Source: Candidatus Limnocylindrales bacterium (GTDB lineage Bacteria; Chloroflexota; Limnocylindria; Limnocylindrales; CSP1-4). Taken from it: DNA of 64,000 nucleotides. The notes under the pieces are model-generated. The model did not search any database and was not told the origin of the DNA. It saw only the letters and a program-made list of their open reading frames with translations. This document shows, in pieces, positions 3,089 through 61,854 of the stretch. The DNA is taken from NCBI GenBank assembly GCA_038915165.1, contig JBCLDE010000002.1:7154-71153 (forward strand), given 5' to 3'. Both the position numbers and the translations under genes were made by a program. Every line of letters begins with the position of its first letter. Positions within the stretch are counted from its first letter, which is position 1.

Positions 3089-3200
3089 AAGGGCACGGCT
3101 CCGCTCGTCCTGTCGCAGGATCGGGCACGGCCCAAGTATAGCAGCGACCCTGATCCAGACCGCCATCGAGAACTTCGGGGCGAGGCCGAACACGAAGGAG

Positions 3201-3218
3201 CCGCCGGTCGTCCGGCGG
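3201..3218 (-). terminator. Candidate intrinsic terminator downstream of pnp: the palindrome ccgccgg-tcgt-ccggcgg followed on the minus transcript by a U-containing tract (cuccuucguguu)
   Basis: A 7-bp GC stem with a 4-nt loop sits 34 nt after the pnp stop. The U tract is imperfect, as is typical for high-GC genomes. Confidence 0.35.
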
Positions 3219-3251
3219 CTCGTCGCGAGTGGCGGTCGAGGGTTGCGGACC

Positions 3252-5834: not shown

Positions 5835-5920
5835 GGGAACAGTTCCTCCTTGATCGTGGAGGAGGGCGACGACCTTTGAGCGGGTGGGCCGACTTCGCGG
5901 GCTGAGCGTCGAACGCGACG

Positions 5921-5945
5921 GGACCCCGGGCGATGCCCAGGGTCC
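5921..5945 (-). promoter_or_regulatory. GC-rich stem-loop (11 bp stem, 3 nt loop) in the rpsO-pnp intergenic/pnp leader. It is a candidate RNase III processing/autoregulatory hairpin. A second small hairpin (cctcct...aggagg, about 5845-5866) could sequester the pnp SD.
   Basis: The plus strand reads ggaccccgggc-gat-gcccagggtcc. No U tract follows, so it is unlikely to be a simple terminator. In other bacteria the pnp leader carries an RNase III-cleaved hairpin used for autoregulation. Confidence 0.35.
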
Positions 5946-5958
5946 AGGAGCGGCGGCG

Positions 5959-6228
5959 CTAGCGGCGGAGTCCGAGCCGTCCGATGACGACTCGGTAACG
6001 CGCGCTGTCCTTCTTCATGAGATACGCAAGAAGGCGGCGGCGCTGGCCGACGAGCTTGAGGAGGCCGCGGCGCGAATGATTGTCCTTGGGAAAGCTACGA
6101 AGATGCCCGGTCAGCTCCTTGATCCGCTCCGTCAGGAGCGCGACCTGGACCTCCGGCGACCCGGTGTCACCCTCTTTGGTGGCGAACCCGGTGATGATCT
6201 CCTGCTTCTCTTCCCGCGCGAGCGGCAC
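5959..6228 (-). CDS. rpsO: 30S ribosomal protein S15
   Basis: The frame gives (V)[72 protein letters not shown] start at 6226-6228 with GGAGG 5 nt upstream. The ORF-track start at 6330 adds 34 implausible residues. Confidence 0.9.
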
Positions 6229-24039: not shown

Positions 24040-24792
24040 TCAGGACCCGACCTGGGCGACGACCTCCAACGAGGCGGGATCCATGGCATCCACGAGTTCC
24101 CGGGCCAGCCACTCGTCCGTGTCATCGGAGACCGGGTCGGCACGCAGGTCCAGTTCGAGCTGGTCGCCTGCAAGCGTCCGCTGAAGGGCGAGGAACGAAC
24201 GCCGATGGAAGGGCGTCAACCCCAGCTCCCGGATCGCCATCCGGTGCTCGAGCGTCGCGTAGCCCTGGTTGCGCTCCCAGCCATAGCCGGGATAGCGAGC
24301 GGCCAGGAGGGTCATCATCCGGTCCCGCACGACCTTGGCGACGACGGATGCACAGGCGATCGAATAGATCTTGGCGTCGCCGGCGACGATGCTCGAATAG
24401 GGCCCCACCTGCGCCTCGAAGCCTGCGATCCGATTGCCATCGACCAGGACGTGATCGTGGCCGCCGACCCGCGCGATCGCCCGGCGCATGGCCAGGTGGG
24501 TGGCGTGGTAGATATTGAGCTGGTCGATCTCGCGCACGGACGCAGCGCCCACCCCGACCGCCAAAGCCCGCGACCGGATGACCGGCGCGAGGCGCTCGCG
24601 CTGGCCTGCCGAAAGCGTCTTGGAGTCGCGGACGCCGGGGATCCTGTGGCAGCCCGGCCGCATGATGACGGCCGCGGCGACGACCGCACCGCATGTCGGG
24701 GCGACACCGACTTCGTCCACCCCGACGACCCGGACGAAGCCGTCATTCCAGAGTCGGCGCTCGTAGCCAAGGGTCGGGACGGTGGGGGCCAT
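24040..24792 (-). CDS. rnhB: Ribonuclease HII
   Basis: The protein reads VVGVDEVGVAPTCGAVVAAAVI...DSKTLS...VDGN. Start at the internal ATG at 24792 (MAPTVPTLGYERRLW). Confidence 0.85.
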   Translation of the reverse strand: MAPTVPTLGYERRLWNDGFVRVVGVDEVGVAPTCGAVVAAAVIMRPGCHRIPGVRDSKTLSAGQRERLAPVIRSRALAVGVGAASVREIDQLNIYHATHLAMRRAIARVGGHDHVLVDGNRIAGFEAQVGPYSSIVAGDAKIYSIACASVVAKVVRDRMMTLLAARYPGYGWERNQGYATLEHRMAIRELGLTPFHRRSFLALQRTLAGDQLELDLRADPVSDDTDEWLARELVDAMDPASLEVVAQVGS

Positions 24793-24883
24793 CGGGCGAT
24801 AGCCTACCGGAATCGAACGACCCCACCGGATGGGTGAGGTCGAGCAGGAGTGACAGGTGTCGGCCGACGGCGAGCCAGCTGAG

Positions 24884-32339: not shown

Positions 32340-35300
32340 TTAGCCGGCCGTGGCCAGTTCGCCGCGATCGCGCGCCGCCAGAGCCTGCGCCTCGTCCAGC
32401 CGGAGGCTGATGACCCGGCTGACGGAGTCATCGCCGACGGTCACCCCGTAGAGCGCATCGGCCGCCTCGATCGTGCCCCGGTTATGGGTGATCACGATGA
32501 ACTGGGTCTGATGGGCCAGGCTGCGCAGGGCATCGGCGAAGCGCCCGATATTGGCTTCGTCAAGGGCCGCGTCGACCTCGTCGAGGACGCAGAACGGGAC
32601 CGGTCGAACTTCAAGCATCGCGAACAGGAGCGCGACCGCGGTCAACGCGCGTTCCCCGCCTGAGAGCATGGCGAGGGCCTGTGGCTTCTTGCCCGGTGGT
32701 TGCGCCACGATCTCCACGCCGGTCGAGCCGAGGTCCGTCGGGTCGGTCAGGGACAGCTTCGCGGAGCCTCCGCCGAAGAGCTGCTCGAACCGTGCCGCGA
32801 ACGCTGTCTCCAGGGCCCGGAACGTCGCCCGGAAGCGGTCCGCGATCATCGTGTCCAACTCGGCGATGAGATCACGTGTGCGCATGATGGCCGTCCGCAG
32901 GTCCGCGTCCTGGGCCTCGAGCGTTGCAAGCCGAATGCTGAGGGCCGTGTACTCATCGACGGCGTACGGGTTCACCGCGCCGAGCTCGTGGAAGCGTCGA
33001 CGGAGTTGGCCCAGGCGAGCCGAGCTGGGGGCTGGCAGGCTCGGTGGCTGCGCGGCCCAGACCGGCGCGGCCCGATCGATCGCGGTCTCGAGTGCCGCCA
33101 CTTCGTCCGATACGGCGCCGTCATCGGTCGTCGCGGGGCCGACACCGACCGGCGCGGGACCGGCGCCGACCGCCGTGGGGCCGACGCCGACCGCCGCGAG
33201 ACGTACGACACCCAGCTCCCCCAGCCCGGCGAGCTCGACGACGACCCCCTCGCGCAGTGCATCAAGCCCGAGGCGCGCCTCGAGGTCCGTGTGGTCGGCG
33301 GCGCGGAGTCGGGCGTCGGCGGCGCGGAGCCGCTCGCGGGCGGCGGTCGCGTCGCGTTCCGCGGCCGCAAGGCGATCTCGATCTGCTGCGTCAGCCGCAT
33401 GGACCTCCGCCAGGCCAGTCCGTGCGGCAACCTCGCGCTCGGCACTTACTGCGATCTCGGTCCGCAGGGCGTCACGCTCCTCGGCCAGCGCCCGTTCACG
33501 CGCCCCGAGCACAGCGATCTCCTGGTCGGCACGGGCCATCCGCTCCTCGGCCATCATCGTCGAGGCCTCCGCACGAGCCCGGCGATGCTCGGCCTCGCGG
33601 CGCGCAGCTTCTCCGGCGGTGGCCTCTTCGGCCAGGCGATCCCGTCGGGCGCGCAGGGCCGTCGCACGGGCTTCCCAGGCGGCGATCCCGGCGCCATCCT
33701 CCGGGCCGTCCGAGGGGGCCATGTCCGCGTCACCCGCTTCCGGCTCCACCGCCAACGCCGCTACGGCGGCCCGGCCACGCTCGAGTTCTGCCTGCAGGCG
33801 CTCCGTCTGGGCCTCATGCCAGGACGCTTCGCGGACGACCGTCTCCAGTCGACGTGCAGCGAGTCGTTCCGCTTCCTCGGTGGCACGACGCGCACTGCCG
33901 GCCCGGCTTTCCTCAGCTCGCGCGGCCTCCGCCGCCGCCTGTGCAGATCGCGCGGCCGACTCCGCCTCCGTGGCCGCCGCCCGCAGCTCCGCGACCCCCT
34001 GGTCGAGTCGCTCCAGTTCGCCGCTGAGGCGGGTCGCATCTGCCCGTCGCTCCAGTACCGATTCGGTCGCCCCGAAGGTGACCGCGAACTCCGTGACGGT
34101 CGCACTGCCGTCCCGCGGCACGGCGACCCAGCCCGGTGGCAGGACGGCCTGGATGGCGAGTGCGGCGGGAAGGTCCGGCAGCCAGGCGGCCCGGGCCAGC
34201 AATCGCCGGGCGGCACCCGTGGTATCCCGGCGCACGGCGCCATCCAGCGTGCCGCCGCCGGCCGCGGCCAGAGCCTCCCGGAACCGCCGCTCGCGAGCGT
34301 CATCGGGGCCGCCAGCGCCCAGGGCGCGTTCCGAGACGACGAGCGACCCGCGTTCGCCCGCCAGCGACGCGACGGCGTCCAGATTCACGATATAGGCGCG
34401 CGTCGCCTCGGCCAGTGCGGCTTCGGCGGCAGCCCGAAGCGGTGGATCGATGGCGAGATCCTCGTCGAGACGGCGGCCACCCACGCGGCGGGCGGCTCGA
34501 GCGATCCCACGGGCCTCCTCATCGGCAAGCCTGGCGGCGAGGCTGTCAACACGCGATCGGACGGCGGCCGCGACCGCACTGGCTGCCGCCGCGCGTTCCT
34601 GGGCGCCCGTTCGTTCGGCTTCCGCGGCACTGGCCAGCTCGCGGGACGATCCACGGCGATCCACGGCGGCGGCTTCGGCATCGACGGCCTCCGCGAGCGC
34701 CAGCCGAGCTGCGGCCAGGCCGGCATCGAGCACCGCTCGTCGTTCCAGGGACGCTTCGGCCTGACCGGCTTCCTCGGCAGTCCGGTGTTCCACCTCCGCC
34801 AGGCGGCGTCGGGCAGTCTCGGCTTCGGCCTGCCGCGCAGCGGCGGCGCGGCGCAGTGCAGCGAGCTCCTGGCCGTGTACCTGTCGGGCGCTGCGCAGAG
34901 CGGCCAGCTCAGCGAGGGCGTCAGCCAGCTCGCGTTCGGCTTCCCCGAGGCTCGCGCCGAGGTCCAGGTCCGGAGGTGGCACCGGGGCGGCGATCGATCG
35001 TCGGCCGGCCGCCATCTCCGCCTCCGCGGCGGCCCGCTCGGCGACGAGCCGACGTCGATCGCGATCCAGCGCATCGAGATCCGACGCCAGCCGGGCATCG
35101 CGCAGCTGCGCCGAGGTGGCCGCTGTCCGTGCGGCGTCGTGCGCCTCGCGCCGATCACGCTCCAGCGTCGCCCGGACGGCGAGCTCAGTCGAGAGTCCGG
35201 ACGCGGTCGTCTCGGCCTCGCCGAGATCTGTCATCGCCCGCTCGACCTCGGCCCGCACGCGGTCGCGCTCCCCCTGCGCCACGGCCAGCCGGGCGGCGGC

Positions 35301-36032
35301 CTCGTGCCAGCGGGCGTGCATGGCCAGGACCAATGCGTCGGCCAGTTCCGCCGCGGTGGTCTCACGTGATGCCTGCTGCTCGGCCTGGGATGCCAGCCGA
35401 CGGGCCTGCGGCCGCAGCTCTCCGAGGATGTCCTCGACACGAGCCAGGTTCGCCTCGGATTCGGTCAGTTGTTCTTCGGCCCGGCGACGTCGCCGCTCGT
35501 GCCGTCGGACCCCGGCCACCTCCTCGAACAACGGCCGTCGTTCCTCCGGGCGCAGCGCAAGCGCCTGATCGACCATCCCCTGGCCGATGAACAGGAAGGC
35601 GTTGTCGGCCAGATGGGCGGCGTCCAGCAGGTCGACCAGATCGCGCAGGCGGATCCGGCTCTTGTTCAGCAGGTACTCGTTCTCGCCTGAACGGTACAGG
35701 CGACGGCCAAGCTCCAACACCTGGTACTCGACCGGCAGTAGGCCGTCCCCGTTATCGAGGACGAGCGTGACATCGGCCATCCCCTGGGCGGCGCGCTTCT
35801 CCGAGCCCGCCCAGATGACATCCTCAGCCTTGCGCGAACGAAGCGCCCGGCCCTGCTCGCCGAGCGCCCAGCGCAACGCGTCCGCGAGGTTGCTCTTGCC
35901 CGAGCCATTCGGCCCGACGACCGCACTGATACCCGGCCCGAACTCCACGATGGTCCGCTCCGCGAACGACTTGAATCCTTGCAGGCGCAGGGCGAGCAGG
36001 CGCGGTTCGGTCCGGCGGCCGTCGTCGATCAC
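32340..36032 (-). CDS. smc: Chromosome partition protein SMC (1230 aa)
   Basis: The N-terminal Walker A is FGPGISAVVGPNGSGKSNLADAL. There are long Ala/Arg/Glu coiled coils. The C-terminal signature/Walker B is LSGGERALTAVALLFAM...VLDEVDAALD. Confidence 0.9.
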   Translation of the reverse strand: MIDDGRRTEPRLLALRLQGFKSFAERTIVEFGPGISAVVGPNGSGKSNLADALRWALGEQGRALRSRKAEDVIWAGSEKRAAQGMADVTLVLDNGDGLLPVEYQVLELGRRLYRSGENEYLLNKSRIRLRDLVDLLDAAHLADNAFLFIGQGMVDQALALRPEERRPLFEEVAGVRRHERRRRRAEEQLTESEANLARVEDILGELRPQARRLASQAEQQASRETTAAELADALVLAMHARWHEAAARLAVAQGERDRVRAEVERAMTDLGEAETTASGLSTELAVRATLERDRREAHDAARTAATSAQLRDARLASDLDALDRDRRRLVAERAAAEAEMAAGRRSIAAPVPPPDLDLGASLGEAERELADALAELAALRSARQVHGQELAALRRAAAARQAEAETARRRLAEVEHRTAEEAGQAEASLERRAVLDAGLAAARLALAEAVDAEAAAVDRRGSSRELASAAEAERTGAQERAAAASAVAAAVRSRVDSLAARLADEEARGIARAARRVGGRRLDEDLAIDPPLRAAAEAALAEATRAYIVNLDAVASLAGERGSLVVSERALGAGGPDDARERRFREALAAAGGGTLDGAVRRDTTGAARRLLARAAWLPDLPAALAIQAVLPPGWVAVPRDGSATVTEFAVTFGATESVLERRADATRLSGELERLDQGVAELRAAATEAESAARSAQAAAEAARAEESRAGSARRATEEAERLAARRLETVVREASWHEAQTERLQAELERGRAAVAALAVEPEAGDADMAPSDGPEDGAGIAAWEARATALRARRDRLAEEATAGEAARREAEHRRARAEASTMMAEERMARADQEIAVLGARERALAEERDALRTEIAVSAEREVAARTGLAEVHAADAADRDRLAAAERDATAARERLRAADARLRAADHTDLEARLGLDALREGVVVELAGLGELGVVRLAAVGVGPTAVGAGPAPVGVGPATTDDGAVSDEVAALETAIDRAAPVWAAQPPSLPAPSSARLGQLRRRFHELGAVNPYAVDEYTALSIRLATLEAQDADLRTAIMRTRDLIAELDTMIADRFRATFRALETAFAARFEQLFGGGSAKLSLTDPTDLGSTGVEIVAQPPGKKPQALAMLSGGERALTAVALLFAMLEVRPVPFCVLDEVDAALDEANIGRFADALRSLAHQTQFIVITHNRGTIEAADALYGVTVGDDSVSRVISLRLDEAQALAARDRGELATAG
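33136..33198. repeat. In-frame tandem repeat of about 21 nt x3 inside smc, encoding GVGPTAV-GAGPAPV-GVGPATT
   Basis: The sequence reads ggccgacaccgaccggcgcgggaccggcgccgaccgccgtggggccgacgccgaccgccgcg. Confidence 0.8.
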
Positions 36033-36742
36033 GTGATCGCACCGTCCCGTTCGCTCGCTCGAAGTCGCGTCAAGGCCTGCGCGGCAGCCGCCGTCTCAGC
36101 CGTGCGCCGGGAGGGGCCTTCGCCGGTCCCGACCAGCTCGTCGTCGACCCAGACCTCGATCCGGAACGACTTCTCGTGGTCGGGACCGGTCGTGTCGATG
36201 AGGCGGTAAGCGGGCCGATCTCCGGATCGGCGCTGGGTGAACTCCTGGAGTCGGCTCTTTGGGCTCTTGAGGACGCCGATGGGCGCCTCCGCAATCAGCT
36301 CTGGTTCGGCCAGGCCGATGATCCAATCGCGCACCGGGCCGAATCCCATGTCCAGATACAGCGCGCCAGCGACCGCTTCCAGGGTGGACGCCAGCAATGA
36401 TGGCCGGCGTCGGCCGCTGCGCCTGGATTCGCCCTCGCCGAGAAGCATGGCACTGCCGAGGTCGATCCGGCCGGCCAGCCGGGCGAGGCCGGTGGTCGAA
36501 ACGATGGCGGCTCGACGCGCGCTCAGATTCCCCTCGTCATCTGTCGGGTGACGGGCGTACAGCGCCTCGGACAACGCCAGGTTGACCACGGCGTCACCCA
36601 AGAACTCGAGACGCTCGTTGTGGCCGGCCGCGGCGTCGGGGTGCTCGTGATACCAACTCGAATGGACGAGGGCCTGCTCCAGCAGGCCCAGGTCGCTGAC
36701 GGGAAGACCGAGACGCGCCGCGAACGCTTCGGCGGGACGCAC
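36029..36742 (-). CDS. rnc: Ribonuclease III
   Basis: The signature is HNERLEFLGDAVV (ERLEFLGDA) and a C-terminal dsRBD. Confidence 0.9.
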   Translation of the reverse strand: MRPAEAFAARLGLPVSDLGLLEQALVHSSWYHEHPDAAAGHNERLEFLGDAVVNLALSEALYARHPTDDEGNLSARRAAIVSTTGLARLAGRIDLGSAMLLGEGESRRSGRRRPSLLASTLEAVAGALYLDMGFGPVRDWIIGLAEPELIAEAPIGVLKSPKSRLQEFTQRRSGDRPAYRLIDTTGPDHEKSFRIEVWVDDELVGTGEGPSRRTAETAAAAQALTRLRASERDGAIT

Positions 36743-50876: not shown

Positions 50877-53417
50877 TCAGAGGAGCGAGTCGGGGTCAAC
50901 GTCCACCGACCAGGGCGCATCGAGTCCGCCGTCGAGGATGGCTGTCGGATCCGCCCCGCGCAGGACGATATTCCAACGCCAGCGGTCGGCCCGCCGGGCG
51001 ATGTAGGCAGGTGCCGGACCGACCACGGCCACCCTTCCGCCATGTTCCGCGGCCCGCTCGCGCAGGCGCTGGGCCATGGCCGTCGCCTCGCGCTCGGCCG
51101 CTGCCGGATCTGCAAGACCCACGGTCAACTTGACTAACCGTCCGAAAGGCGGCGAACCGAATCGCTCACGCAAGGCGAGCTCTGCCCGATAGAACGAGTC
51201 GCGATCGCCGCTGGCCACGGCCTGGATGGCTGGATGGTCCGGCTGGTAGCTCTGGATGATCGCGCGGCCTGGTCGAGTCCCACGCCCCGCCCGCCCGATC
51301 GCCTGGACCAGGAGCTGGTACGTCCGCTCGGCGGCGCGCTCGTCGGGAAGATTGAGGGCGACGTCGGACGAGATGATGCCGACCAGAGTCACTGACGGGA
51401 TATCGAGCCCCTTCGTCACCAGGCTGGTCCCGACCAGGACGTCGAGCCGGCCTTCCGCGAAGGCATCGATGACCCGCTCCGCCGCCCCCCGGTGCTCGAC
51501 CACGTCGCGATCCAGCCGGCCGACGCGCAGCCCCGGGAATCCTTCCTTCACTTCGCGCTCCACCCGCTCCGTGCCGCCGCCGAGGTAGCGGATGCGCGGC
51601 GAACCACAGGCCGGACAACGAGACGCCAGCGGGGTGGCGCGCCCGCAGTGGTGACAGCGCAGCGTCGTGCCCGCCTGGTGATAGACGAGCGGTCGCTCAC
51701 AGTCGGGGCAGGCCTGGACGTGCCCGCAGTCCCGGCACAGCACGACCGACGCCGTGCCGCGCCGGTTGAGGACGAGGATGGCCTGCTCACCTGTAGCCGG
51801 GTCGAGCGCGCCGAGGGCCGACGATAGCGCCCGGGACAGGAGGCCCCGCTGCCCAGCGGCCAGCTCTTCCCGCAGGTCCACGATCTCCACCATCGGCGCG
51901 GCTCCGACCGGCCGAGCCGGCAGGACGACCCGCGCGTATTCCTCGGCAAGGGCACGCCCGACACTCTCGACCGCCGGCGTAGCCGACCCGAGCACGACCG
52001 CGGCGCCGGCCAGGGCGCCCAGCCGGATCGCCATGTCGCGGGCCTGCAGGCGCGGCGTGCGGTCGCTCTTGTAGGCCGCGTCATGCTCCTCGTCGACGAT
52101 GACGACGCCGACATCGGTCAGCGGCGCGAGGACCGCCAGCCGGGTCCCCACCACGATGTCGACATCACCGGAGCGGATGCGGCGCCACTCGTCCGCTCGC
52201 TCGCCGTCGCCCAGCCCGGAATGGAGCAGCGCGACCCGGGTATCGAGGTCCGCCCGCAGCCGGTCGACAAGCGGCAGCGCCAGCGCGATCTCGGGAACGA
52301 GGACGAGTGCCGGCCGACCGGCATCCAGGGAGGCCGCGATAGCCTCCACGTAGATCGCGGTCTTGCCGCCGCCGGTGACGCCGTCGAGCAACAGCGGGCG
52401 TGGGTCGCGGCCGACGATGGCGGCTCGGATCAGGGCAACGGCCTCGGCCTGGGCCGGCGACAGCGGGCTGGCCGTCGGTCGACCACCTCGCGCGCCCACG
52501 GGTCGACTGGCGAGCGGTCGGCGGGGTCGTTCGCGAACCTCGGACTCGACGAGGCCACGGCGGACCAGTCCAGCCAGGGCGGCGTGGCCATGCCGATCGC
52601 CGAGATCCGCGGCCGGCAGCTCACCATCGGTCGCGGTCGCCAACTCGGCGAGGGCGGCTGCCTGGCGCGGCCCGAGCGGCCGGCCCTTGGGCTTCTCGTC
52701 GGTGGCGTGCACCGCCAGCAGCGCGCGTCCTTCCTCTCGCAACGCGATCCAGCGCTCGTAGCGTGGACCGGCGCCGGCCCGTATCAGCGTCCATTCAAGC
52801 GAGATCAATCCACTCGCCGCGAGGGCGCGCAACCGGCGCAGGAGACCGGCGCGACCGTCCGGCCCGGCAAGGTCGCGCACCGGACGCGGGCCGCGCTCCA
52901 GCTGCTGGAGCAGGTCGGCGTCGGCGGCATCCGTCTGCACGACGGGCGTGGGCGCCCCGGTCGCCCCGATCGCCCCGATCGCCCCGGTCGCCCCGGCGTC
53001 GACGCCCTCGGCCCATCGCGTCGGCCCGAGTTCCGCCACCAGCTCCAGTCGCTCCAGTAGACCGGGCGGCAGCATCGCGCGCAGGACGAGCGCCGGGGGC
53101 GCGAGGTACTGCTCCGCGATACTGCGGGCCAACGCCAGGCTGAGGGGCGGCAGGAGCGGTCCATCGGCCCGGACGCGCGCGACGATGGGGCGAGGCGTGG
53201 CGACCGGCGCCAGATCTGCCTCGGCCACGACGATCCCCAGCGCCTGGCGACGACCGAACTCGACCAGGACCGCCTCGCCCACGGCCAGATCGGTCAGCGT
53301 CTTCGGGACGAGGTAGGTGTATGTCTGGGACCGGCCGCCGGCGGCGTCCACTGCGACCTCGACGAGACGACCGGACGGCGAGGCGGCACCCCCGTCCTCA
53401 TCCAGTCCGAGCGTCAC
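50877..53417 (-). CDS. priA: Primosomal protein N' (PriA helicase)
   Basis: The motifs are LLLDGVTGGGKTAIY, the Zn-binding region CRDCGHVQACPDCERPLVYH...CHHCG...CPACGS, and the C-terminal helicase. An in-frame 9-nt repeat (gccccgatc x about 4, 52955-53000) encodes GATGAIGAIGATGAP. Confidence 0.9.
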   Translation of the reverse strand: MTLGLDEDGGAASPSGRLVEVAVDAAGGRSQTYTYLVPKTLTDLAVGEAVLVEFGRRQALGIVVAEADLAPVATPRPIVARVRADGPLLPPLSLALARSIAEQYLAPPALVLRAMLPPGLLERLELVAELGPTRWAEGVDAGATGAIGAIGATGAPTPVVQTDAADADLLQQLERGPRPVRDLAGPDGRAGLLRRLRALAASGLISLEWTLIRAGAGPRYERWIALREEGRALLAVHATDEKPKGRPLGPRQAAALAELATATDGELPAADLGDRHGHAALAGLVRRGLVESEVRERPRRPLASRPVGARGGRPTASPLSPAQAEAVALIRAAIVGRDPRPLLLDGVTGGGKTAIYVEAIAASLDAGRPALVLVPEIALALPLVDRLRADLDTRVALLHSGLGDGERADEWRRIRSGDVDIVVGTRLAVLAPLTDVGVVIVDEEHDAAYKSDRTPRLQARDMAIRLGALAGAAVVLGSATPAVESVGRALAEEYARVVLPARPVGAAPMVEIVDLREELAAGQRGLLSRALSSALGALDPATGEQAILVLNRRGTASVVLCRDCGHVQACPDCERPLVYHQAGTTLRCHHCGRATPLASRCPACGSPRIRYLGGGTERVEREVKEGFPGLRVGRLDRDVVEHRGAAERVIDAFAEGRLDVLVGTSLVTKGLDIPSVTLVGIISSDVALNLPDERAAERTYQLLVQAIGRAGRGTRPGRAIIQSYQPDHPAIQAVASGDRDSFYRAELALRERFGSPPFGRLVKLTVGLADPAAAEREATAMAQRLRERAAEHGGRVAVVGPAPAYIARRADRWRWNIVLRGADPTAILDGGLDAPWSVDVDPDSLL

Positions 53418-54088: not shown

Positions 54089-55039
54089 TCATCTGACGAC
54101 CGCGCGCAGACCATCCAGCACGGATTCGAGTTCCGGTGGCAATGGTGCCGTGGCACGGATGAGGTGACCGTCCGTCGGCGACGTCAGTTCGAGGCGCCAG
54201 GCGTGCAGGAAGAGACGCTCGAGGCCATCCGGCCCCCGTCGGGACGTGCCCGTGCCATACACGGGATCGCCTGCGACCGGGTGGCCGATCGCCTGGAGGT
54301 GCACGCGGATCTGGTGCGTCCGACCTGTCACGAGATCGAGTTCGAGGAGCGTCCAGGCCGTGAACCGCTCGCGGACGCGATATCCGGTCACGGACGCGCG
54401 ACCGTCTTTGACGACGGCCATCCGCGTCCGGTGTTTCGGGTCGCGCCCGATCGGGGCCTCGATCCGCCCGACTGCTGCTGCGACACTACCCTGGACCAGC
54501 GCGAGGTACGTCTTCTTGATCCGGCGTGCCTTCAACTGGGCCATCAGCGAGGCCTGCGCCAAGTCGTGCCGGGCGACCATCAGCAGGCCGCTCGTGTCCC
54601 GATCGAGACGGTGGACGATACCCGGCCGCTGGACACCGGCGATCCCACCCCACGAGTCGCCGTCGCCGTGGGCCAGCAGCGCGTTGACCAGCGTGTCGTT
54701 GGCGTGCCCGGGCGCTGGGTGGACGACCAGCCCGGAGGGCTTGTCGATGATCAGCAGGTCGTCATCCTCGTAGACGACGTCGAAGGCGATGTCCGGCGCC
54801 GGCGTCAGGTCCAGCGCAACGGCCTCCGGCACATCCAGGCGCAGCTCCGTGCCGGCGCCGACGATCGAGTTGGCCTTGAGTGGCTCGCCCGCGACCGTCA
54901 ACCGGCCGTCGGAGATCAGCTTCTGGACGTAACTCCTCGAGAGCCCCGTCGCGTCGGCGACGTAGCGATCGACCCGGCCACCCGGCCCGTCGGGAACGCG
55001 CATGACGCGCACACCAGGGACGATCGACGGATCAGCCAT
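54089..55039 (-). CDS. rluD: 23S rRNA pseudouridine synthase, RluA family (RluD-like) with an N-terminal S4 domain
   Basis: The protein reads ...LLIIDKPSGLVVHPAPGH...GIVHRLDRDTSGLLMVA... Start placed at the internal ATG (MADPSIV). It overlaps the lspA stop by 8 nt. Confidence 0.8.
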   Translation of the reverse strand: MADPSIVPGVRVMRVPDGPGGRVDRYVADATGLSRSYVQKLISDGRLTVAGEPLKANSIVGAGTELRLDVPEAVALDLTPAPDIAFDVVYEDDDLLIIDKPSGLVVHPAPGHANDTLVNALLAHGDGDSWGGIAGVQRPGIVHRLDRDTSGLLMVARHDLAQASLMAQLKARRIKKTYLALVQGSVAAAVGRIEAPIGRDPKHRTRMAVVKDGRASVTGYRVRERFTAWTLLELDLVTGRTHQIRVHLQAIGHPVAGDPVYGTGTSRRGPDGLERLFLHAWRLELTSPTDGHLIRATAPLPPELESVLDGLRAVVR

Positions 55040-58000
55040 TCGACCTGCCTTCAGTCGTCCTGGACAGCCCGGGCACGATGGCGAGAAGGACGAGCATGAC
55101 GATCGCCGTGCTGATTGCCGCGTCCGCCACGTTGAACGTGGGCCAACGAAGTTCACCGATCCCGATGTCGACCCAGTCGACGACATAGCCCAGGCGCAGG
55201 CGGTCGGCCATATTGCCGAGCGCCCCGCCCAGGAGGAGGCCCAGTGCGATCGACAGGAAGCGGCTGCGTTCGGATCGCCCGTGATGCGCGACGATGAGCC
55301 CGACCACGCCGAGCGAGACCAGGCCGAACAGAAGGGCCTGGTCCTGGAACAGCCCGAACAGCGCCCCGGAGTTCTGACTGAACACGAGACGAACGAGATC
55401 GCCGGCGACCGTCATCACGTCGCCGGGCGAGATCGCCGAGACGAGCCACGCCTTCGACACCTGGTCGGCGACAAGGACGAGCACTGCCGTGCCGAGGAAG
55501 GCGGCCCGATCGGCGCCCGCCCGGACTCCCCCACCCATCAAATCTGAGCCGTCCACCGTCATGCCAGCCGACCCGCCCGTCGACTGGCGGCGCAATGCGA
55601 TCTCCACGGGACCGCCATCAAGCTCGACCGTGGCCCGACGGACGCCGCTCATCAGGCCGTGATCGGGAGCGGTCCCGGCGATGTCGGCAAGGGTGTCGCT
55701 GGTGACGGAAAGGAGGTGGGCCGCGACGGCGCCGGGCAGGTCGCCGACCCACAGGTCGATCCGGTCATCCAGCTGGAGCCCGGCGTCCTTGCGCAGATCC
55801 TGGATGGCGCGCTGGAGCTCACGTGCATCGCCCTCTGCGACCAGCTCCGGCGTCAACACCGTGTCCAGGACGACCACGAGGCCATCGTGATGGGCCACGG
55901 CCTTGCCCGGCCGGGGGGTGGCCTGGATCTCCACCTCATCCGCTGCCAGGGTCACGCCGGCCAGCGTCACGGAGCCGTCGTCCTCAAACCGGACGTCGCC
56001 CGCGCGTGCGGCGGCCATGACCGCCGGGATCGCGGAGCCGAGGCGTTTGCCGATCCGGGGCAGGAGCGGCTTGATCCGACGCTCGACGAGCTCCGAGTCG
56101 TCGTCGATCACCTGGACCCGCTTGACGTTGATCTCATCGGCGATGAGCCGCAAGAACGCCTGGTCGATGGTCAGGCCACGGTCCGGCAGGGCCAGCCACG
56201 CGGTGGCCAACGGCTGGCGGGTCTTGAGGTGGGCGGTGCTGCGCAGGGTGCGAACGAGTTCGACCGCGCCCTGCGCGATGGCCATCGAAGCTTCCAGCCC
56301 CTCGTCACGGTACGCGGCGAGATCGGCGCTCGGCCATCTCGTGAGATGGACGCTATCGGGCTCCTCGGGCAGGACGGTCGTGACCAGGTTCTGGTAGATC
56401 GCCTCGGCGAGGAATGGCAGGATCGGGCCCAGCATCCGTGCTGTGCTGACGAGCGCCTCATGAAGCGTGGCGAAGGCCGCCTGCCGATCAACCAGATCGT
56501 CGGAGCGTGAGAAACGGCGGCGTGACTGGCGCAGATACCACGTCGACAGGCCATCGAGGAACGCCGACAGGGCTTTCGCCGCGCCCATCGCGTCGACGTC
56601 CTGGAGGCGCTCCTCCATGACGGCGGCCGTACCGGCGGCACGAGACAGGATCCAACGGTCCAGAAGCGGGCGATCGGCGACCGGCGGGGCGGTCTCAGCC
56701 GGGGTCCAACCCGCGAGCCGGGCGTAGGTCGTGAAGAAGGCGTAGACGTTCCACAGGACCAGCAATTCGCGGCGCGTCTCGTCGGCGGCATGCCAGCCGA
56801 ACATGATGTTGTCCTCCGGCCGCGCCTTGACGAACATCCAGCGCATGACGTCGACGCCCATCCGATCGGCCGCCTCGTCGAAGTCGATCGCGTTGCCCCA
56901 GCTCTTGTGCATCGGCCGACCATCCTCGCCGTGGACGAGGGCGTAGCCGAAGAGCGTCTTGAACGGCTGTTCGCGGCGCAGCACCGTGGACATCGCGAGC
57001 ATGGAATAGAACCAGTTGCGGAACTGGCCGGGAAAGCTCTCGGTCACGAAGTCGGCCGGGAACCACTGCGCCCAGTACGCCGGATCCTCGCGCTGATGGA
57101 GCGTCGAAAAGGGCACGATGCCGGCATCGAGCCATGGGTTGCCGACGTCCCTGATGCGCTCGACCGGTGTCCCGCACTTGGGACAGTCGATGCGGACCGC
57201 ATCCACGAACGGCCGATGCGGGGTGTGACCCTCGAACGCTGCCCAGCCGTCGACGGCCCGTCGCTGCAATTCGTCGCGACCCCCGATGACCTCCACCGTC
57301 CCGCACGACGAGCAGTCATAGATCGGCAGCGCCAGGCCCCAGTAGCGCTTCTTGCTGATCATCCAGTCGTGCATGTTGTAGAGCCAGTCCAGCTCGCGCT
57401 CGTAGCCGAACTCCGGGATCCAGCGGATCTGGTCGACGCTTTCCATGATCTGGTAGCGGAGGCTGGCGTCGACCTGCTCGCGGGTCAGTGTCTCGCGCGG
57501 CTGGTCGTAGACCGGGCCCATGTTGATGTACCACTCGTCGACGAGGCGGAAGACGAGCGGTGTGTTGCACCGCCAGCAGTGCGGGTAGCGGTGCGTGATC
57601 GTCTCGAGGCGGTAGAAACGGCCTTCGCGCTTGAGATGCTCGATGATCGGTTCCGCCACGTCGCGGACATCACGGCCGGACAGCGCGCCGAACCCATCGA
57701 CGAAGACTCCTGATTCGTCGAGCGGTGCGATGACCGGTAGGCCCAGCTCACGGCCCAGCTGGAAGTCTTCCGCCCCGCAACCCGGGGCGACGTGGACGAT
57801 GCCCGTGCCTTCGTCCTCCCCGACCTCGGTCCAGGCCACGACCCGATGCTCGTACGGGTGCTCGGGGACGTCCCGGGTCCCCGCGGCGAACGCCTCGCGC
57901 ACAGCTGGCAGGTCGTCGAACTGGCCCTCGTAGCGCCAGCCGATCATCTCGGCGCCGGTCAGCTCGTCGAGTACCTCGTACGGCCCGGCGAGGGCCTGCT

Positions 58001-58946
58001 TGAGGGTGCCCTTGCCGAGCCAGAAGATATCGTCGCGCTGGCGGACGCGGACGTAACGCAGGGCGGAGCCGACGGCCGCCGCCACATTCGAGGTCAGCGT
58101 CCAGGGAGTGGTCGTCCAGACCAGGAGCGACTCGCCGGGTCGGTCCATGAGCGGGAACCGGACCGTCAGGCCGGGGTCCTCGCGGTCCTGGTAGCCCTCG
58201 TTCATCTCGGTCTGGGAAAGGCCGGTCCCGCAGCGGGCGCACCACGGCATCGTGTCGTGGCCCTTGTACAACCAGCCGCGCCGGTGCACCTCGGCCAGGA
58301 AGCCCCAGATCAGGTCGTTGTTCTCGTTGCTGAACGTGAAGTAGCTGCCGCCGATGTCCGGCATACCCAGACGCCCGACGAGCATCTCGACGGTGTCGGT
58401 GACCGGGCCGTCGGTGCCCGCGATGGTCGCGACTGCCGAGGGATCCGTGCCAAGCAGGTCGCCCAGACGGCGCAGCTCATCCGGATCGTTCCAGTCCATC
58501 CACATGCCCAGCCGGATGGATTGCTCCGTCTGGCGGGCGGCGTAGGTCAGGACGCGCTGCTTGCACAGGGTCACGAAGCGAGCGATCCCAAAGGCCTCGA
58601 TGTCCCGCTTGGACGCGAACGCCAGGTCGCGCTCGACATTGACCTCGACCCACAGGCCCTGGCAATCGAAGCCGTTCTGGTAGCGCTCGTCCTCACCGAG
58701 CATCGCGTGAAAGCGCTGGTAGAGGTCCTTGTAGGTCCGCCCCCAGGCGTGATGGACGCCCATCGGGTTGTTGGCCGTGATCGGGCCGTCGAGGAAGCTC
58801 CACCTGGGTCCGCCGGCGTTCTGGGCGCGCAACCGACTGAACGTCTGACGGTCGCGCCAGAGGGCCAGCATGGCGTGCTCCTGGGCGACGAAGTCGGGCT
58901 TCGAACTGACGGATAGGAACATTCGGCCTCGGGGTTGAGTGGGCAC
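55032..58946 (-). CDS. ileS: Isoleucyl-tRNA synthetase (type 2) continuing without a stop into lipoprotein signal peptidase: a single 1304-codon frame (ileS-lspA fusion or unresolved junction)
   Basis: The IleS N-terminus is ...DGPITANNPMGVHHAWGRTYKDLYQRF...KMSKS-class core. The last 176 codons are a complete LspA: ...LVLVADQVSKAWLV...VFSQNSGALFGLF...WPTFNVADAAI. Confidence 0.85.
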   Translation of the reverse strand: MPTQPRGRMFLSVSSKPDFVAQEHAMLALWRDRQTFSRLRAQNAGGPRWSFLDGPITANNPMGVHHAWGRTYKDLYQRFHAMLGEDERYQNGFDCQGLWVEVNVERDLAFASKRDIEAFGIARFVTLCKQRVLTYAARQTEQSIRLGMWMDWNDPDELRRLGDLLGTDPSAVATIAGTDGPVTDTVEMLVGRLGMPDIGGSYFTFSNENNDLIWGFLAEVHRRGWLYKGHDTMPWCARCGTGLSQTEMNEGYQDREDPGLTVRFPLMDRPGESLLVWTTTPWTLTSNVAAAVGSALRYVRVRQRDDIFWLGKGTLKQALAGPYEVLDELTGAEMIGWRYEGQFDDLPAVREAFAAGTRDVPEHPYEHRVVAWTEVGEDEGTGIVHVAPGCGAEDFQLGRELGLPVIAPLDESGVFVDGFGALSGRDVRDVAEPIIEHLKREGRFYRLETITHRYPHCWRCNTPLVFRLVDEWYINMGPVYDQPRETLTREQVDASLRYQIMESVDQIRWIPEFGYERELDWLYNMHDWMISKKRYWGLALPIYDCSSCGTVEVIGGRDELQRRAVDGWAAFEGHTPHRPFVDAVRIDCPKCGTPVERIRDVGNPWLDAGIVPFSTLHQREDPAYWAQWFPADFVTESFPGQFRNWFYSMLAMSTVLRREQPFKTLFGYALVHGEDGRPMHKSWGNAIDFDEAADRMGVDVMRWMFVKARPEDNIMFGWHAADETRRELLVLWNVYAFFTTYARLAGWTPAETAPPVADRPLLDRWILSRAAGTAAVMEERLQDVDAMGAAKALSAFLDGLSTWYLRQSRRRFSRSDDLVDRQAAFATLHEALVSTARMLGPILPFLAEAIYQNLVTTVLPEEPDSVHLTRWPSADLAAYRDEGLEASMAIAQGAVELVRTLRSTAHLKTRQPLATAWLALPDRGLTIDQAFLRLIADEINVKRVQVIDDDSELVERRIKPLLPRIGKRLGSAIPAVMAAARAGDVRFEDDGSVTLAGVTLAADEVEIQATPRPGKAVAHHDGLVVVLDTVLTPELVAEGDARELQRAIQDLRKDAGLQLDDRIDLWVGDLPGAVAAHLLSVTSDTLADIAGTAPDHGLMSGVRRATVELDGGPVEIALRRQSTGGSAGMTVDGSDLMGGGVRAGADRAAFLGTAVLVLVADQVSKAWLVSAISPGDVMTVAGDLVRLVFSQNSGALFGLFQDQALLFGLVSLGVVGLIVAHHGRSERSRFLSIALGLLLGGALGNMADRLRLGYVVDWVDIGIGELRWPTFNVADAAISTAIVMLVLLAIVPGLSRTTEGRSNG
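55035..55562 (-). CDS. lspA: Lipoprotein signal peptidase II (LspA) portion of the ileS frame. Candidate internal starts are MTVDG (55562) and MGGGV (55538).
   Basis: It has four TM segments and the catalytic Asp motifs (NSGALFG, FNVAD). No strong SD lies upstream of either internal ATG. It is in the same frame as ileS with no intervening stop. Confidence 0.7.
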
Positions 58947-59008
58947 GCCGTCCGGGTCAGACGGTCACCCGGACGCTCGTTTCGGCGGGTCCGAGTATCC
59001 TACCCGCG

Positions 59009-60832
59009 ATGCACGAATCGCAGGCCGCGCGCTTGCGCGCCCGCTCGCCGTTCACCGCGGCGTTCCTCTCCCTGATCTTTCCGGGCCTCGGGCACCTCTA
59101 TGCCGGCGCGCCGACCCGGGCACTCGCATTCGCGGCCGCCCCGATCCTGTTCGTCGCCCTCGTCGCGGGCGTGGCCCTGAGAATGGACCTGATCGAGCTC
59201 ATCGGCCTCGTCCTGGACCCGTTCGTCCTGAGCTCGGTGTTCGTGCTCAACCTGATCGTCCTGCTCTACCGACTCGTCGCCATCGTCGATGCCTACCGCG
59301 TCGCCGAGTACCTGAATGCCTATGCCGCGTCGGGCGATGGGCGGGCCGGCACCGCCCGGATCAGGCACAACCCGCTATCGGTCGCGGGCCTGCTGGCGAT
59401 CCTGCTCGTGATGGCCGGCAGTCACGTCGTCGTGGCTCGCTACGACCTGCTGGCGCTCGACGTCCTCCAGAGTGGCTGCATCTTCATCGGCGATACAAGC
59501 CAGGACTGTGCGCTCGACGCAGCGCCATCATCGGGTGCGTCAGGGAATCCCGGCGACAGGTCCTCCGCACGACCCACATCCTCCCCGGCTCCGGAGGCGA
59601 CAGCGATCGGCGGCGCCGTGCCTGACGTGTCCATCCCACCGTGGGACGGCAAGGAACGGTTGAACATCCTGTTGATCGGCTCGGACCAGCGCCCATCGGA
59701 GGGTTCGTACAACACGGACACGCTCATCGTGGTCTCGATCGACCCCGTCACGAAGCAGGTGTCCATGTTCGGCCTGCCGCGTGACACGGTCGACATCCCC
59801 GTCCCGCCCGGGCCGGCCCGGCGCGTCTTCGGTACGGCCTACCGGGGCAAGATCAATGGCTGGTTCACGGCGGTCCGCGATCGCAGCGACCTGTTCCCGG
59901 GCACGGACCGGACGCGTGGCTATAACGGCCTCAAGGCGATCATGGGCAACCTTTACGGCCTCGACATCAAGTACTTCGTGGAAGTCAACTTCGACGGCTT
60001 CAGGGCCGTCGTCGACTCCGTTGGCGGGGTGACGATCAACGTCCAGATCCCCGTCTCCGACGATCGGTACCCCAGCGTGAATGGCCGGCTCGAACGCGTC
60101 TACATCCCAAGTGGCATCCAGCACATGGATGGCACCCAGGCCCTTCGTTACGCCCGCTCGCGCCACGAGTCCTCAGACTTCGACCGCGGCCAGCGCCAGC
60201 AGCGCGTCCTGCTCTCGCTGCGCGAACAGGCCGACCCGCAGTCGCTCATCCCGCGGTTGCCCGACCTCGTGACCGCCTTGAAACGGGCCGTCCGGACGGA
60301 CGTACCGGTCGATCAGCTGGCGCCGCTCCTGGGCCTCGCGTCCCAGGTCGACACGAAGAACATCCGCTCGTACGTCTTCGCCCCGCCGCTCTACTCGAGC
60401 CATACCTGCGCGGATCCGCGCGGCTGCGTGGTGTACCCCAGGCTCGACAGGATCCGGGCCGCGGTGGATGCGGCCTTCTCCAGCGACCCGGCCGACGAGG
60501 TCCTGCGCGAGACATTGGCCCAGGAGGGGGCCGGCGTGTGGGTCCTCAACGGTATGGCCGATCGCGACCGAGGCACACGCCTGGCGGGCTACCTCGAGTA
60601 CCACGGGCTGGCCGCGTCGGCGCCCCGCCAGCGTCCGGAGGGTCCCGTCCCGGCCAAGACGAGGATCGTCGTCTACAACGGGGCCGAGGCCGATGCCGCA
60701 GCCACGATCGCCTACCTCGAGAAGACGTTCGGGGTGAAGGCGACCCTGAAGGTGGACAGCGCCATCCGGACCGACGTCATCGTCACGATCGGCAAGTCCA
60801 CCCCGGATCTCCAGGCGCCAGTCGGGCCCTAG
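59009..60832 (+). CDS. LytR-CpsA-Psr (LCP) family cell-envelope phosphotransferase with an N-terminal polytopic membrane region and a C-terminal LytR_C-like domain
   Basis: The LCP core is ...RLNILLIGSDQRPSEGSYNTDTLIVVSIDP...FGLPRDT...GYNGLKA... It has 3-4 N-terminal TM helices. Confidence 0.8.
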   Translation: MHESQAARLRARSPFTAAFLSLIFPGLGHLYAGAPTRALAFAAAPILFVALVAGVALRMDLIELIGLVLDPFVLSSVFVLNLIVLLYRLVAIVDAYRVAEYLNAYAASGDGRAGTARIRHNPLSVAGLLAILLVMAGSHVVVARYDLLALDVLQSGCIFIGDTSQDCALDAAPSSGASGNPGDRSSARPTSSPAPEATAIGGAVPDVSIPPWDGKERLNILLIGSDQRPSEGSYNTDTLIVVSIDPVTKQVSMFGLPRDTVDIPVPPGPARRVFGTAYRGKINGWFTAVRDRSDLFPGTDRTRGYNGLKAIMGNLYGLDIKYFVEVNFDGFRAVVDSVGGVTINVQIPVSDDRYPSVNGRLERVYIPSGIQHMDGTQALRYARSRHESSDFDRGQRQQRVLLSLREQADPQSLIPRLPDLVTALKRAVRTDVPVDQLAPLLGLASQVDTKNIRSYVFAPPLYSSHTCADPRGCVVYPRLDRIRAAVDAAFSSDPADEVLRETLAQEGAGVWVLNGMADRDRGTRLAGYLEYHGLAASAPRQRPEGPVPAKTRIVVYNGAEADAAATIAYLEKTFGVKATLKVDSAIRTDVIVTIGKSTPDLQAPVGP

Positions 60833-60873
60833 GCGGCCGGAACGGGCCTGGGTCTGGTCCGACGAGCCACCGG

Positions 60874-61854
60874 CTATTCGATCGGGGTCAGCCAGTGCTC
60901 GTATTCGGGCAGCCGGCCGCGCACCGCGTCGAAGTAGCGGTCCCGGACCAGGCGGCTGATCGGACCGACCTGACCCGACCCGACCGGTCGATGATCCACC
61001 TCCACGACCGGCGAGATCTGGACGCCCGTACCGCAAAGGAATATCTCGTCGGCGATGTATAGCTCGCTGCGATCGATGGAACGCGTCTCGACCGGGATCC
61101 CCTCGTTGGCCATGAGCTCCATGAGCGCCTTGCGGGTCACGCCCTCCAGCAGGTCGTCACTGACCGGTGGGGTGAGCGCGACGCCGTCGCGGACCACGAA
61201 GACGTTGGCAGCCGAGGCCTCGTTGACGTGCCCGTTTGCGGTGAGCACGATCGCCTCGTCAAAGCCGTTGAGCTCCGCCTCCGACTTCTGGAACGCCATG
61301 TTGACATAGCCGCCGACGATCTTGCCGCGGGCCGGCAACGCTTCATCCGCGTTGCGCCGCCAGGTCGACGTCATGACCCGGACGCCGATATCGGTGTCGA
61401 TGTAGTTGCCGAACGGGAGGGCCACGATGTACAGCTCGTTGTCGAGATCGTGCAAGCGCACGCCGATCGCCCGGGTCGACTTGTAGACGGACGGACGGAT
61501 GTAGGCGTCCTCGCGGAAATGGTTGCGCCGGACCGTTTCGACGATGAGCCGGGTCAATTCGTCGACCGGCGGTACGTCGGTCATCAACAGGATCCGGCAC
61601 GACTGCCGGATCCGTTCGACGTGTTCACGCACCTTGAGGCCGTACAGTCGGCCCTGCTCCGAGTTCCAGTAGGCGCGGATCCCCTCGAACGTCGCCGTCC
61701 CGTACATGAAGGCGTGGGTCATGACGCTGACCTTGGCATCGCGCATCGGGACCCAGTCGCCTTCGAAGTAGCAGATCAAGTCGTCGAGCGACGCGGCGGT
61801 CGGGGCATGGTGGGTGCTCGGCGTCGGCGGGGCCTCGGACTTCTCGGTCAACAT
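60874..61854 (-). CDS. ilvE: Branched-chain amino acid aminotransferase
   Basis: The protein reads ...HAFMYGTATFEGIRAY...IVGGYVNMAFQKSEA...EIFLCGTG. Confidence 0.85.
   Translation of the reverse strand: MLTEKSEAPPTPSTHHAPTAASLDDLICYFEGDWVPMRDAKVSVMTHAFMYGTATFEGIRAYWNSEQGRLYGLKVREHVERIRQSCRILLMTDVPPVDELTRLIVETVRRNHFREDAYIRPSVYKSTRAIGVRLHDLDNELYIVALPFGNYIDTDIGVRVMTSTWRRNADEALPARGKIVGGYVNMAFQKSEAELNGFDEAIVLTANGHVNEASAANVFVVRDGVALTPPVSDDLLEGVTRKALMELMANEGIPVETRSIDRSELYIADEIFLCGTGVQISPVVEVDHRPVGSGQVGPISRLVRDRYFDAVRGRLPEYEHWLTPIE

Follow-up and report, generated by a model that had tools for sequence, protein, structure and literature searches.

We found that, in an uncultured, soil-type Chloroflexota bacterium, the genes for isoleucyl-tRNA synthetase (IleRS; ileS) and signal peptidase II (LspA; lspA) are joined in one uninterrupted reading frame on the reverse strand of a DNA stretch of 64,000 nucleotides (nt). 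The stretch comes from Candidatus Limnocylindrales bacterium (NCBI GenBank assembly GCA_038915165.1, contig JBCLDE010000002.1, positions 7,154 to 71,153 of the forward strand) and is called the window in the following, with all positions given in its own numbering. The domains of both enzymes are intact in the fused frame, the fusion has a single-base cause, namely a TCG codon at the position of the ileS stop codon TAG, and it is unique among the related loci compared.

The fused ileS-lspA frame

The following features define the fusion:

55032..58946, reverse strand: uninterrupted open reading frame (ORF) of ileS and lspA, with the TGA stop at 55032-55034
55572..58922, reverse strand: portion corresponding to a type-2 IleRS (IleRS2), 1117 amino acids (aa), assigned by Pfam, NCBIfam and PDB matches and equal in length to its closest homolog P0391
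55569..55571, reverse strand: codon TCG, Ser1126 counted from GTG or Ser1118 counted from ATG, homologous to the ileS stop TAG of the six nearest relatives
55506..55586, reverse strand: Gly/Ser-rich linker of 27 residues, QSTGGSAGMTVDGSDLMGGGVRAGADR, from IALRR of IleRS to the first transmembrane helix (TM1) of LspA
55032..55562, reverse strand: lspA within its boundaries in relatives, starting at ATG 55562 (176 aa) or alternatively at GTG 55556 or ATG 55538

The ORF listing counts 1304 codons from GTG 58946. The likelier start is ATG 58922, which is preceded by GAGG on its 5' side and yields a product of 1296 aa and about 144 kDa. In the same frame, Pfam matches to tRNA-synt_1 (E 6e-71), Anticodon_1 and DUF5915 cover residues 190-1090, followed by a match to Peptidase_A8 (E 2.8e-33) at residues 1154-1289 of the fused ORF. 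Two strong domain matches share this frame, which therefore did not stay open by chance in a genome with 69% G+C. Hydrophobic segments are confined to residues 1154-1298. No in-frame stop separates ileS from lspA in the window, and the LspA part is not free-standing as encoded. The stretch equivalent to the linker is shared in relatives by the tail of ileS and the N-terminus of LspA, with a spacer of 6 nt between them; in the predicted fusion, the linker-spanning stretch contains IALRRQSTGGSAGMTVDGSDLMGGGVR. A first-pass annotation, made from the sequence alone, had already described ileS and lspA as one frame of 1304 codons, which is borne out by the ORF listing, Pfam and NCBIfam, and had correctly labeled the synthetase as type 2 and the gene arrangement as ileS-lspA-rluD, as judged by TIGR00392, the PDB matches and the Pfam domains of rluD.

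A DNA alignment with the six closest relatives contained no indels at the junction and gave GGGTAGGCTGACATG for the relatives (AGGTAGGCTGAGATG in L164) and GGGTCGGCTGGCATG for the window. In L001, L161-L163 and L165, the codons GGT, GGG, TAG, GCT and GAC precede ATG ACG GTG GAC, and the window aligns without a gap, carrying GGC, GGG, TCG, GCT and GGC before the same four codons. The decisive base is at position 55570, which is C on the reverse strand and G on the forward strand. From ileS through lspA to rluD, the window and its closest relative, L165, align gap-free with 92% nt identity. The fused frame is therefore explained by a single A-to-C difference turning TAG into TCG: because lspA lies in the frame of ileS, only 6 nt downstream in this sub-lineage, the loss of one stop merges both genes. 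In 34 of 35 relatives carrying the hexamer TAGGCT (see below), the ileS stop TAG stands at the position homologous to TCG. About 40 relatives have lspA in the frame of ileS, and all of them retain a stop, suggesting that fusion is normally selected against.

Comparison with related loci

The related loci comprised 80 GTDB species representatives, 80 metagenome contigs and five further loci (L161-L165) around the closest database proteins. Each locus was anchored by a script on the C-terminal IALRR of IleRS and on TM1 of LspA, and 125 junctions were compared. In addition, we used the best 120 full-length IleRS matches and the best 120 LspA matches as homolog sets, whose members belong to uncultured Chloroflexota labeled Limnocylindrales or Limnocylindria.

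An ileS stop was present at 124 of the 125 junctions, located 2-11 codons past IALRR except for one case at 42 codons. Among the GTDB loci, 79 of 80 were unfused, the sole fused one being L006; neither the approximately 40 metagenome loci carrying both genes nor L161-L165 contained a fusion. The metagenome scan yielded no relative closer than 68% identity. The best 120 full-length IleRS homologs (77-94% identity) were 1031-1120 aa long, and none of them contained a Peptidase_A8 domain. The best of them, P0391, shares 94% identity and has 1117 aa, which means that it ends exactly at the TCG position of the window. Likewise, all of the best 120 LspA homologs were separate proteins of 154-210 aa, without any fused one among them. 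A conserved fusion protein is thus not supported and is largely refuted by these comparisons, which point to a singleton point difference caused by either a recent mutation or a base error. Among the three options raised in the first-pass annotation, the lost stop agrees with the TAG of the relatives being one base away from the window's codon, whereas an established fusion does not agree with stops at 124 of 125 junctions. Aligning the relatives, as had been proposed there, placed TAG at exactly the homologous codon with a single differing base; the stop is indeed conserved, but the change is a substitution outside a homopolymer, whereas a single-base change in a homopolymer had been envisaged.

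L006 was rejected as a true second fusion. It belongs to a long-read MFD metagenome-assembled genome (MAG) with a second ileS frame break upstream, and the usual GTGA overlap at its junction is one base out of register, indicating a likely indel error. About ten proteins containing DUF5915 together with Peptidase_A8, which were obtained in the first homolog search, were likewise rejected as indel artefacts, each showing out-of-frame Arg-rich stretches. The junction-spanning matches of a search against representative proteins were of the same artefact type with multiple frame changes, the longest protein having 813 aa, so that distant full-length fusions may escape this search. The literature search, limited to one searchable library, retrieved nothing relevant on an IleRS-LspA fusion or on an internal lsp promoter.

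Broken ileS frames were a recurrent observation in this survey, affecting about 12 of the 80 loci from GTDB, almost all of them from long-read MFD MAGs (L005, L006, L009, L017, L025, L035, L045, L072 and L076-L079). As a result, public catalogues include artefactual chimeras of an IleRS C-terminus with LspA, as well as artefactual IleRS tail fragments of 234-270 aa (P0001, P0002, P0004-P0006, P0008, P0039, P0055, P0059, P0079, P0243, P0244, P0258 and P0364).

Properties of the IleRS2 and LspA portions

The synthetase portion scored 634.5 bits against the NCBIfam equivalog TIGR00392 (ileS; cutoff 621.4), and its best PDB matches were IleRS2 of Priestia megaterium (PmIleRS2; 8C8W, E 1e-174), followed by IleRS of T. 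thermophilus (1ILE). Its class I signature is located at:

58749..58760, reverse strand: GVHH (residues 63-66), the non-canonical GXHH type, aligned to GVHH of 8C8W

A G/AXHH motif is the non-canonical signature variant specific to IleRS2 (Brkic et al. 2023, PMC10485003; structures 8C8U-8C9D), and the GXHH variant has been linked experimentally to mupirocin hyper-resistance (PMC10485003). The C-terminal organization is also of type 2, as indicated by PF19302 (DUF5915) at residues 934-1090 and by the alignment with PmIleRS2, which reaches residue 1059. Type-2 enzymes follow an ARD2/INS/ARD3 scheme without a zinc-binding domain, and their last domain, ARD3, reads the anticodon base G34 (bioRxiv 10.64898/2026.02.03.703510). 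The window protein therefore resembles the IleRS2 represented by 8C8U-8C9D in matching over the whole synthetase, in having GVHH at the HXGH position and in its DUF5915 C-terminal domains. It differs from them by a C-terminal extension of 179 residues, consisting of the linker and LspA, and by its KMSKS loop. This loop aligns as PMHKS (region 56898-56912) with KMSKS of PmIleRS2, keeping the second Lys and the Ser but not the first Lys.

The LspA portion exceeded the cutoffs of both TIGR00077 (lspA; 93 vs. 73.95 bits) and PF01252 (115.6 vs. 25 bits) and aligned over its full length, through TM1-TM4, to the structures 5DIR (P. aeruginosa) and 6RYO (S. aureus). The following motifs were located:

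55353-55373, reverse strand: NSGALFG, an LspA motif
55167-55184, reverse strand: VVDWVD, a catalytic-Asp motif aligned to 5DIR and 6RYO
55122-55136, reverse strand: FNVAD, a catalytic-Asp motif aligned to 5DIR and 6RYO

With its full-length match over TM1-TM4 and the motifs N-x-G-A-x-F, VVD(F/W) and FN(L/V)AD, the portion corresponds to a regular LspA (Peptidase A8), and the complete LspA with NSGALFG and FNVAD reported by the first-pass annotation was confirmed. The difference from known LspA is that no stop precedes the window copy, so that it forms the C-terminal part of the encoded IleRS, whereas the best 120 homologs are free-standing. The six closest of these (P0121-P0126; 83-87% identity) are separate proteins of 176 aa, which start at the ATG homologous to 55562.

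The internal start codons ATG 55562, GTG 55556 and ATG 55538 are all retained in the window, and both ATG codons are indeed found where the first-pass annotation had placed them. Pairing of their upstream regions in the manner of a Shine-Dalgarno (SD) sequence is weak. Calculated anti-SD duplex energies were −6.3 kcal/mol for ATG 55562, −4.1 kcal/mol for GTG 55556 and −5.9 kcal/mol for ileS itself, while 11% of the internal ileS codons reach −6 kcal/mol or lower. The earlier statement that neither ATG has a convincing SD was therefore roughly right.

A conserved motif at the ileS-lspA junction

The window contains a variant of a motif that is conserved at many of the related junctions:

55566..55595, reverse strand: TTGCGC (55590-55595), an 18-nt spacer and TCGGCT (55566-55571), the window copy of conserved TTGCGY-N18-TAGGCT

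The hexamer TAGGCT occurs at 40 of the 125 junctions, including those of L001-L003, L007, L014 and L018, and its TAG usually serves as the ileS stop. In 32 of 35 motif-bearing relatives, it follows exactly 18 nt after TTGCGY, which is built on the rare Leu codon TTG of IALRR. This TTG codon is present at 33 of the 35 junctions with the motif vs. 8 of the 86 without it (Fisher p 1e-19, kinship ignored). L056 and L164 keep TAGGCT as well, although it is out of frame there and ileS ends at another codon; the non-coding GCT does not vary. Downstream of the hexamer, the short-linker relatives, including the group of the window, carry a GTG after 8-9 nt, and the long-linker relatives carry GGAGG after 14-27 nt, followed by an in-frame CTG 7-8 nt further on. 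Judging from this conservation, TAGGCT is more readily explained as a −10 element of the TANNNT type in an internal lspA promoter than as an SD sequence, which suggests that the putative −10 element doubles as the ileS stop codon in these relatives. In the window, the −35-like TTGCGC is intact and the −10-like hexamer reads TCGGCT, with C in place of A at its position 2.

GGTAGG was also considered as an SD sequence of lspA, but was rejected because its distance to the start codon varies from 0 to 11 nt. A further reason is the perfect GGAGG located 7-8 nt before the conserved in-frame CTG in the long-linker relatives. We observed this GGAGG-N7-8-CTG arrangement in the lspA frame of L084 (~1645-1700), L085 (~1825-1880) and L082 (~405-460) and also in L014, L022, L047, L056, L057, L062 and L073. 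Because L084 and L085 contain no ATG, GTG or TTG between the upstream stop and TM1, leaving CTG as the only possible start, their lspA genes probably initiate at CTG.

Related heptamers occur elsewhere in the window. GTAGGNT is found at only two sites, both intergenic, compared to 5.6 expected from shuffled sequences. One of them is a candidate element upstream of ileS itself:

58997..59003, reverse strand: GTAGGAT, putative −10 element of the ileS promoter

The other, GTAGGCT (24790-24807, reverse strand), is located 8 nt before ATG 24792 of the RNase HII gene (rnhB, 24040-24792) downstream of rplS, which suggests that the RNase HII mRNA is leaderless or near-leaderless.

Proposed consequences of the stop loss and alternative explanations

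We propose that the ileS stop was changed from TAG to TCG by one A-to-C substitution at 55570. Each ribosome finishing ileS would then continue through the 27-residue Gly/Ser-rich linker into LspA, and the product would be an IleRS2 of about 144 kDa anchored in the membrane through the four helices of LspA. The first-pass annotation had already expected such read-through and tethering of the synthetase to LspA, which follows directly from the sequence, provided that the base is correct. According to the structure paper for 5DIR, the N-terminus of LspA is reportedly cytoplasmic, which would make the topology of the fusion feasible. In the relatives, TTGCGY-N18-TAGGCT may act as an internal promoter, providing lspA with a leaderless or short-leader mRNA of its own. 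The A at position 2 of a sigma-70 −10 hexamer is its most critical base, and changing it usually abolishes promoter activity. Since TCGGCT replaces this A, the same substitution would also weaken the independent transcription of lspA, as far as conservation of the motif can tell, and the remaining sources of LspA would be the fusion and weak internal initiation at ATG 55562 or GTG 55556. We infer that the base is real, that TAGGCT has promoter function and that the cell produces and tolerates the fusion. The complete chain, in which TCG is real and fixed and one mutation eliminated the ileS stop and at the same time inactivated the lspA promoter, leaving an obligatory IleRS2-LspA fusion, is put forward as a tentative reading.

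Its starting point, that TCG is a real, recent, lineage- or strain-specific stop-loss variant, is itself probable. Across the 64 kb, each of the 48 genes examined had a full-length Pfam match in a single frame, without any frameshift, so the assembly looks accurate and a real stop loss is favored over a consensus error. Here, a base was substituted away from any homopolymer, whereas the known public artefacts are indels in long-read MAGs. Another substitution is found at a distance of 5 nt (GAC to GGC), and because the linker is only 84% identical to that of L165, it represents ordinary divergence. The dN/dS values against L165 (0.13 for ileS, 0.20 for lspA and 0.08 for rluD) are low, indicating that purifying selection has acted on both halves, which would be expected if the event is very recent; with their catalytic motifs present, both halves look functional. 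At 8% nt divergence, real substitutions should moreover outnumber, per site and by orders of magnitude, the consensus errors expected of such an assembly. The alternative is a base-call, consensus or strain-mixing artefact that conceals a true TAG, the window base being a consensus error or a minor allele, in which case IleRS (1117 aa) and LspA (176 aa) would be separate proteins and the assembly alone would show them fused. Several observations weigh in this direction: the changed base is invariant in the 40 motif-bearing relatives and in all six nearest ones, which suggests selection against precisely this base change and makes an isolated deviation suspicious; all other proteins combining DUF5915 and Peptidase_A8 that were found in public catalogues were assembly artefacts, and L006 shows a second ileS break in addition; all knowledge of the lineage comes from MAGs; and the TCG allele did not turn up in a second assembly in the homolog sets, the metagenome scan or the exact matches in an assembly index, where neither the fused protein (in two start variants) nor RluD of the window gave any match. 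We consider such an artefact a serious minority possibility. Further points speak against the later steps of the proposed chain. The evidence for the promoter consists of conservation, with association statistics that ignore kinship; a scan for E. coli-style promoters and terminators called no promoter in L001 or the window, and TTGCGY-N18-TAGGCT is weak compared to the E. coli consensus, with which it shares 6 of 12 positions. Attached about 30 residues past the anticodon-reading ARD3, the membrane tether may also interfere with IleRS2 function.

Even with a real mutation, the cell could rely mainly on two separate proteins and tolerate the fusion as a by-product. LspA would then arise by internal initiation (ATG 55562, GTG 55556 or ATG 55538) or from a residual promoter, and the IleRS tail would be cleaved in the linker or the fusion turned over. 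The retained start codons of the relatives, an anti-SD pairing at ATG 55562 that is no worse than that of ileS, the Gly/Ser-rich linker and the intact −35-like TTGCGC are all compatible with this arrangement. However, every completed translation of ileS must yield the read-through product if the stop is missing, elongating ribosomes normally suppress internal initiation, the altered −10 hexamer would usually be inactive by general sigma-70 rules, and no cleavage site was predictable, so we regard this explanation as rather unlikely. Far less probable still is an established, selected family of bifunctional IleRS-LspA proteins coupling isoleucyl-tRNA synthesis to membrane or lipoprotein processing. 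In its favor, the fused frame is unbroken and includes every catalytic motif, the cytoplasmic N-terminus reported for LspA in 5DIR is compatible with it, and bacterial fusions of aminoacyl-tRNA synthetases with membrane enzymes do exist, as in mycobacterial LysX. Nevertheless, there is only one doubtful case in 125 related junctions and none in the best 240 homologs, the nearest relative at 92% nt identity is unfused, the internal starts and the −35 hexamer still in place give no hint of age, and no literature on such a family was found. Mycobacterial LysX (LysRS-MprF) is presumably the nearest conceptual precedent, in which an aminoacyl-tRNA synthetase is joined to an integral membrane enzyme. 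Both cases share the covalent connection of a cytoplasmic synthetase to a polytopic membrane protein, but LysX is conserved and its halves are coupled, as Lys-tRNA feeds lipid lysinylation, whereas the fusion in the window is a singleton. We know of no functional link between IleRS and LspA.

Operon context and further observations in the window

The gene following lspA is:

54089..55039, reverse strand: rluD, 316 aa, with Pfam domains PseudoU_synth_2 and S4; the same 316-aa gene is present in L161-L165

Its ATG (55037-55039) overlaps the end of lspA (ATGGCTGA), and the gene order ileS-lspA-rluD-gmk is the same as in all relatives. Apart from the lost stop, the locus is an ordinary ileS-lspA-rluD-gmk operon of Limnocylindria-type Chloroflexota. 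It resembles the ribF-ileS-lspA-fkpB-ispH operon of E. coli in that lspA follows ileS at a tight junction. Miller and Wu reportedly described that the E. coli genes are cotranscribed and that lsp has an internal promoter within the 3' end of ileS (J Biol Chem 1987). The relatives bearing TAGGCT likewise have a putative internal promoter at the very end of ileS, although in their case the ileS stop is part of the putative −10 hexamer, and the remaining relatives use ATGA or GTGA stop-start overlaps. Different from E. coli, the two ORFs are merged in the window and the ileS stop is missing. All parts are known ones, namely an ileS-lspA operon, an IleRS2 of the GXHH subclass and a standard LspA, and the difference is one codon.

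On its upstream side, ileS (ATG 58922, reverse strand) is divergent from a LytR-CpsA-Psr (LCP) gene (ATG 59009, forward strand), with 86 nt between the start codons, and the putative −10 element GTAGGAT of ileS is only a few bases away from the start codon of the LCP gene. Scanning the window with Rfam and for tRNA genes gave no match, and therefore no T-box or other RNA element is indicated at ileS. L165 carries an S-adenosylhomocysteine hydrolase gene (2832-4070) between the genes for a class IV aminotransferase and the LytR-CpsA-Psr protein; unlike L165, the window has only a gap of about 40 nt at this position (~60832-60874) and no such gene.

Elsewhere in the window, the ORF for polynucleotide phosphorylase (PNPase; 3255-6014, reverse strand) contains two RNase_PH domains, RNase_PH_C, KH and S1. 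It additionally matches an RNase_T/DEDD exonuclease (E 4e-27) at residues 313-465 between the PH domains, which represents an unusual insertion. A frame of 902 codons with high GC3 (32664-35369, forward strand) runs antisense to the SMC gene (32340-36095, reverse strand) and has no Pfam match. This frame and another one opposite priA (51828-53060, forward strand) are most likely shadow ORFs of high G+C content.

Significance

If the base at 55570 is an error, the locus adds a caution, as all other catalogue proteins found that combine an IleRS C-terminus with LspA are frameshift artefacts. Independently of the fusion, the junctions of this poorly known uncultured lineage suggest an overlap of a −10 element with a stop codon and CTG-initiated lspA genes. 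If the base is real, the locus would show the emergence of a bifunctional protein in nature, with one stop-codon substitution joining adjacent in-frame genes, and it would imply that a polytopic membrane protein is tolerated at the C-terminus of IleRS2, directly behind the domain reading the anticodon. Should the complete proposal hold true, this bacterium would possess a membrane-anchored essential synthetase that also supplies signal peptidase II, representing the first step of gene-fusion evolution.

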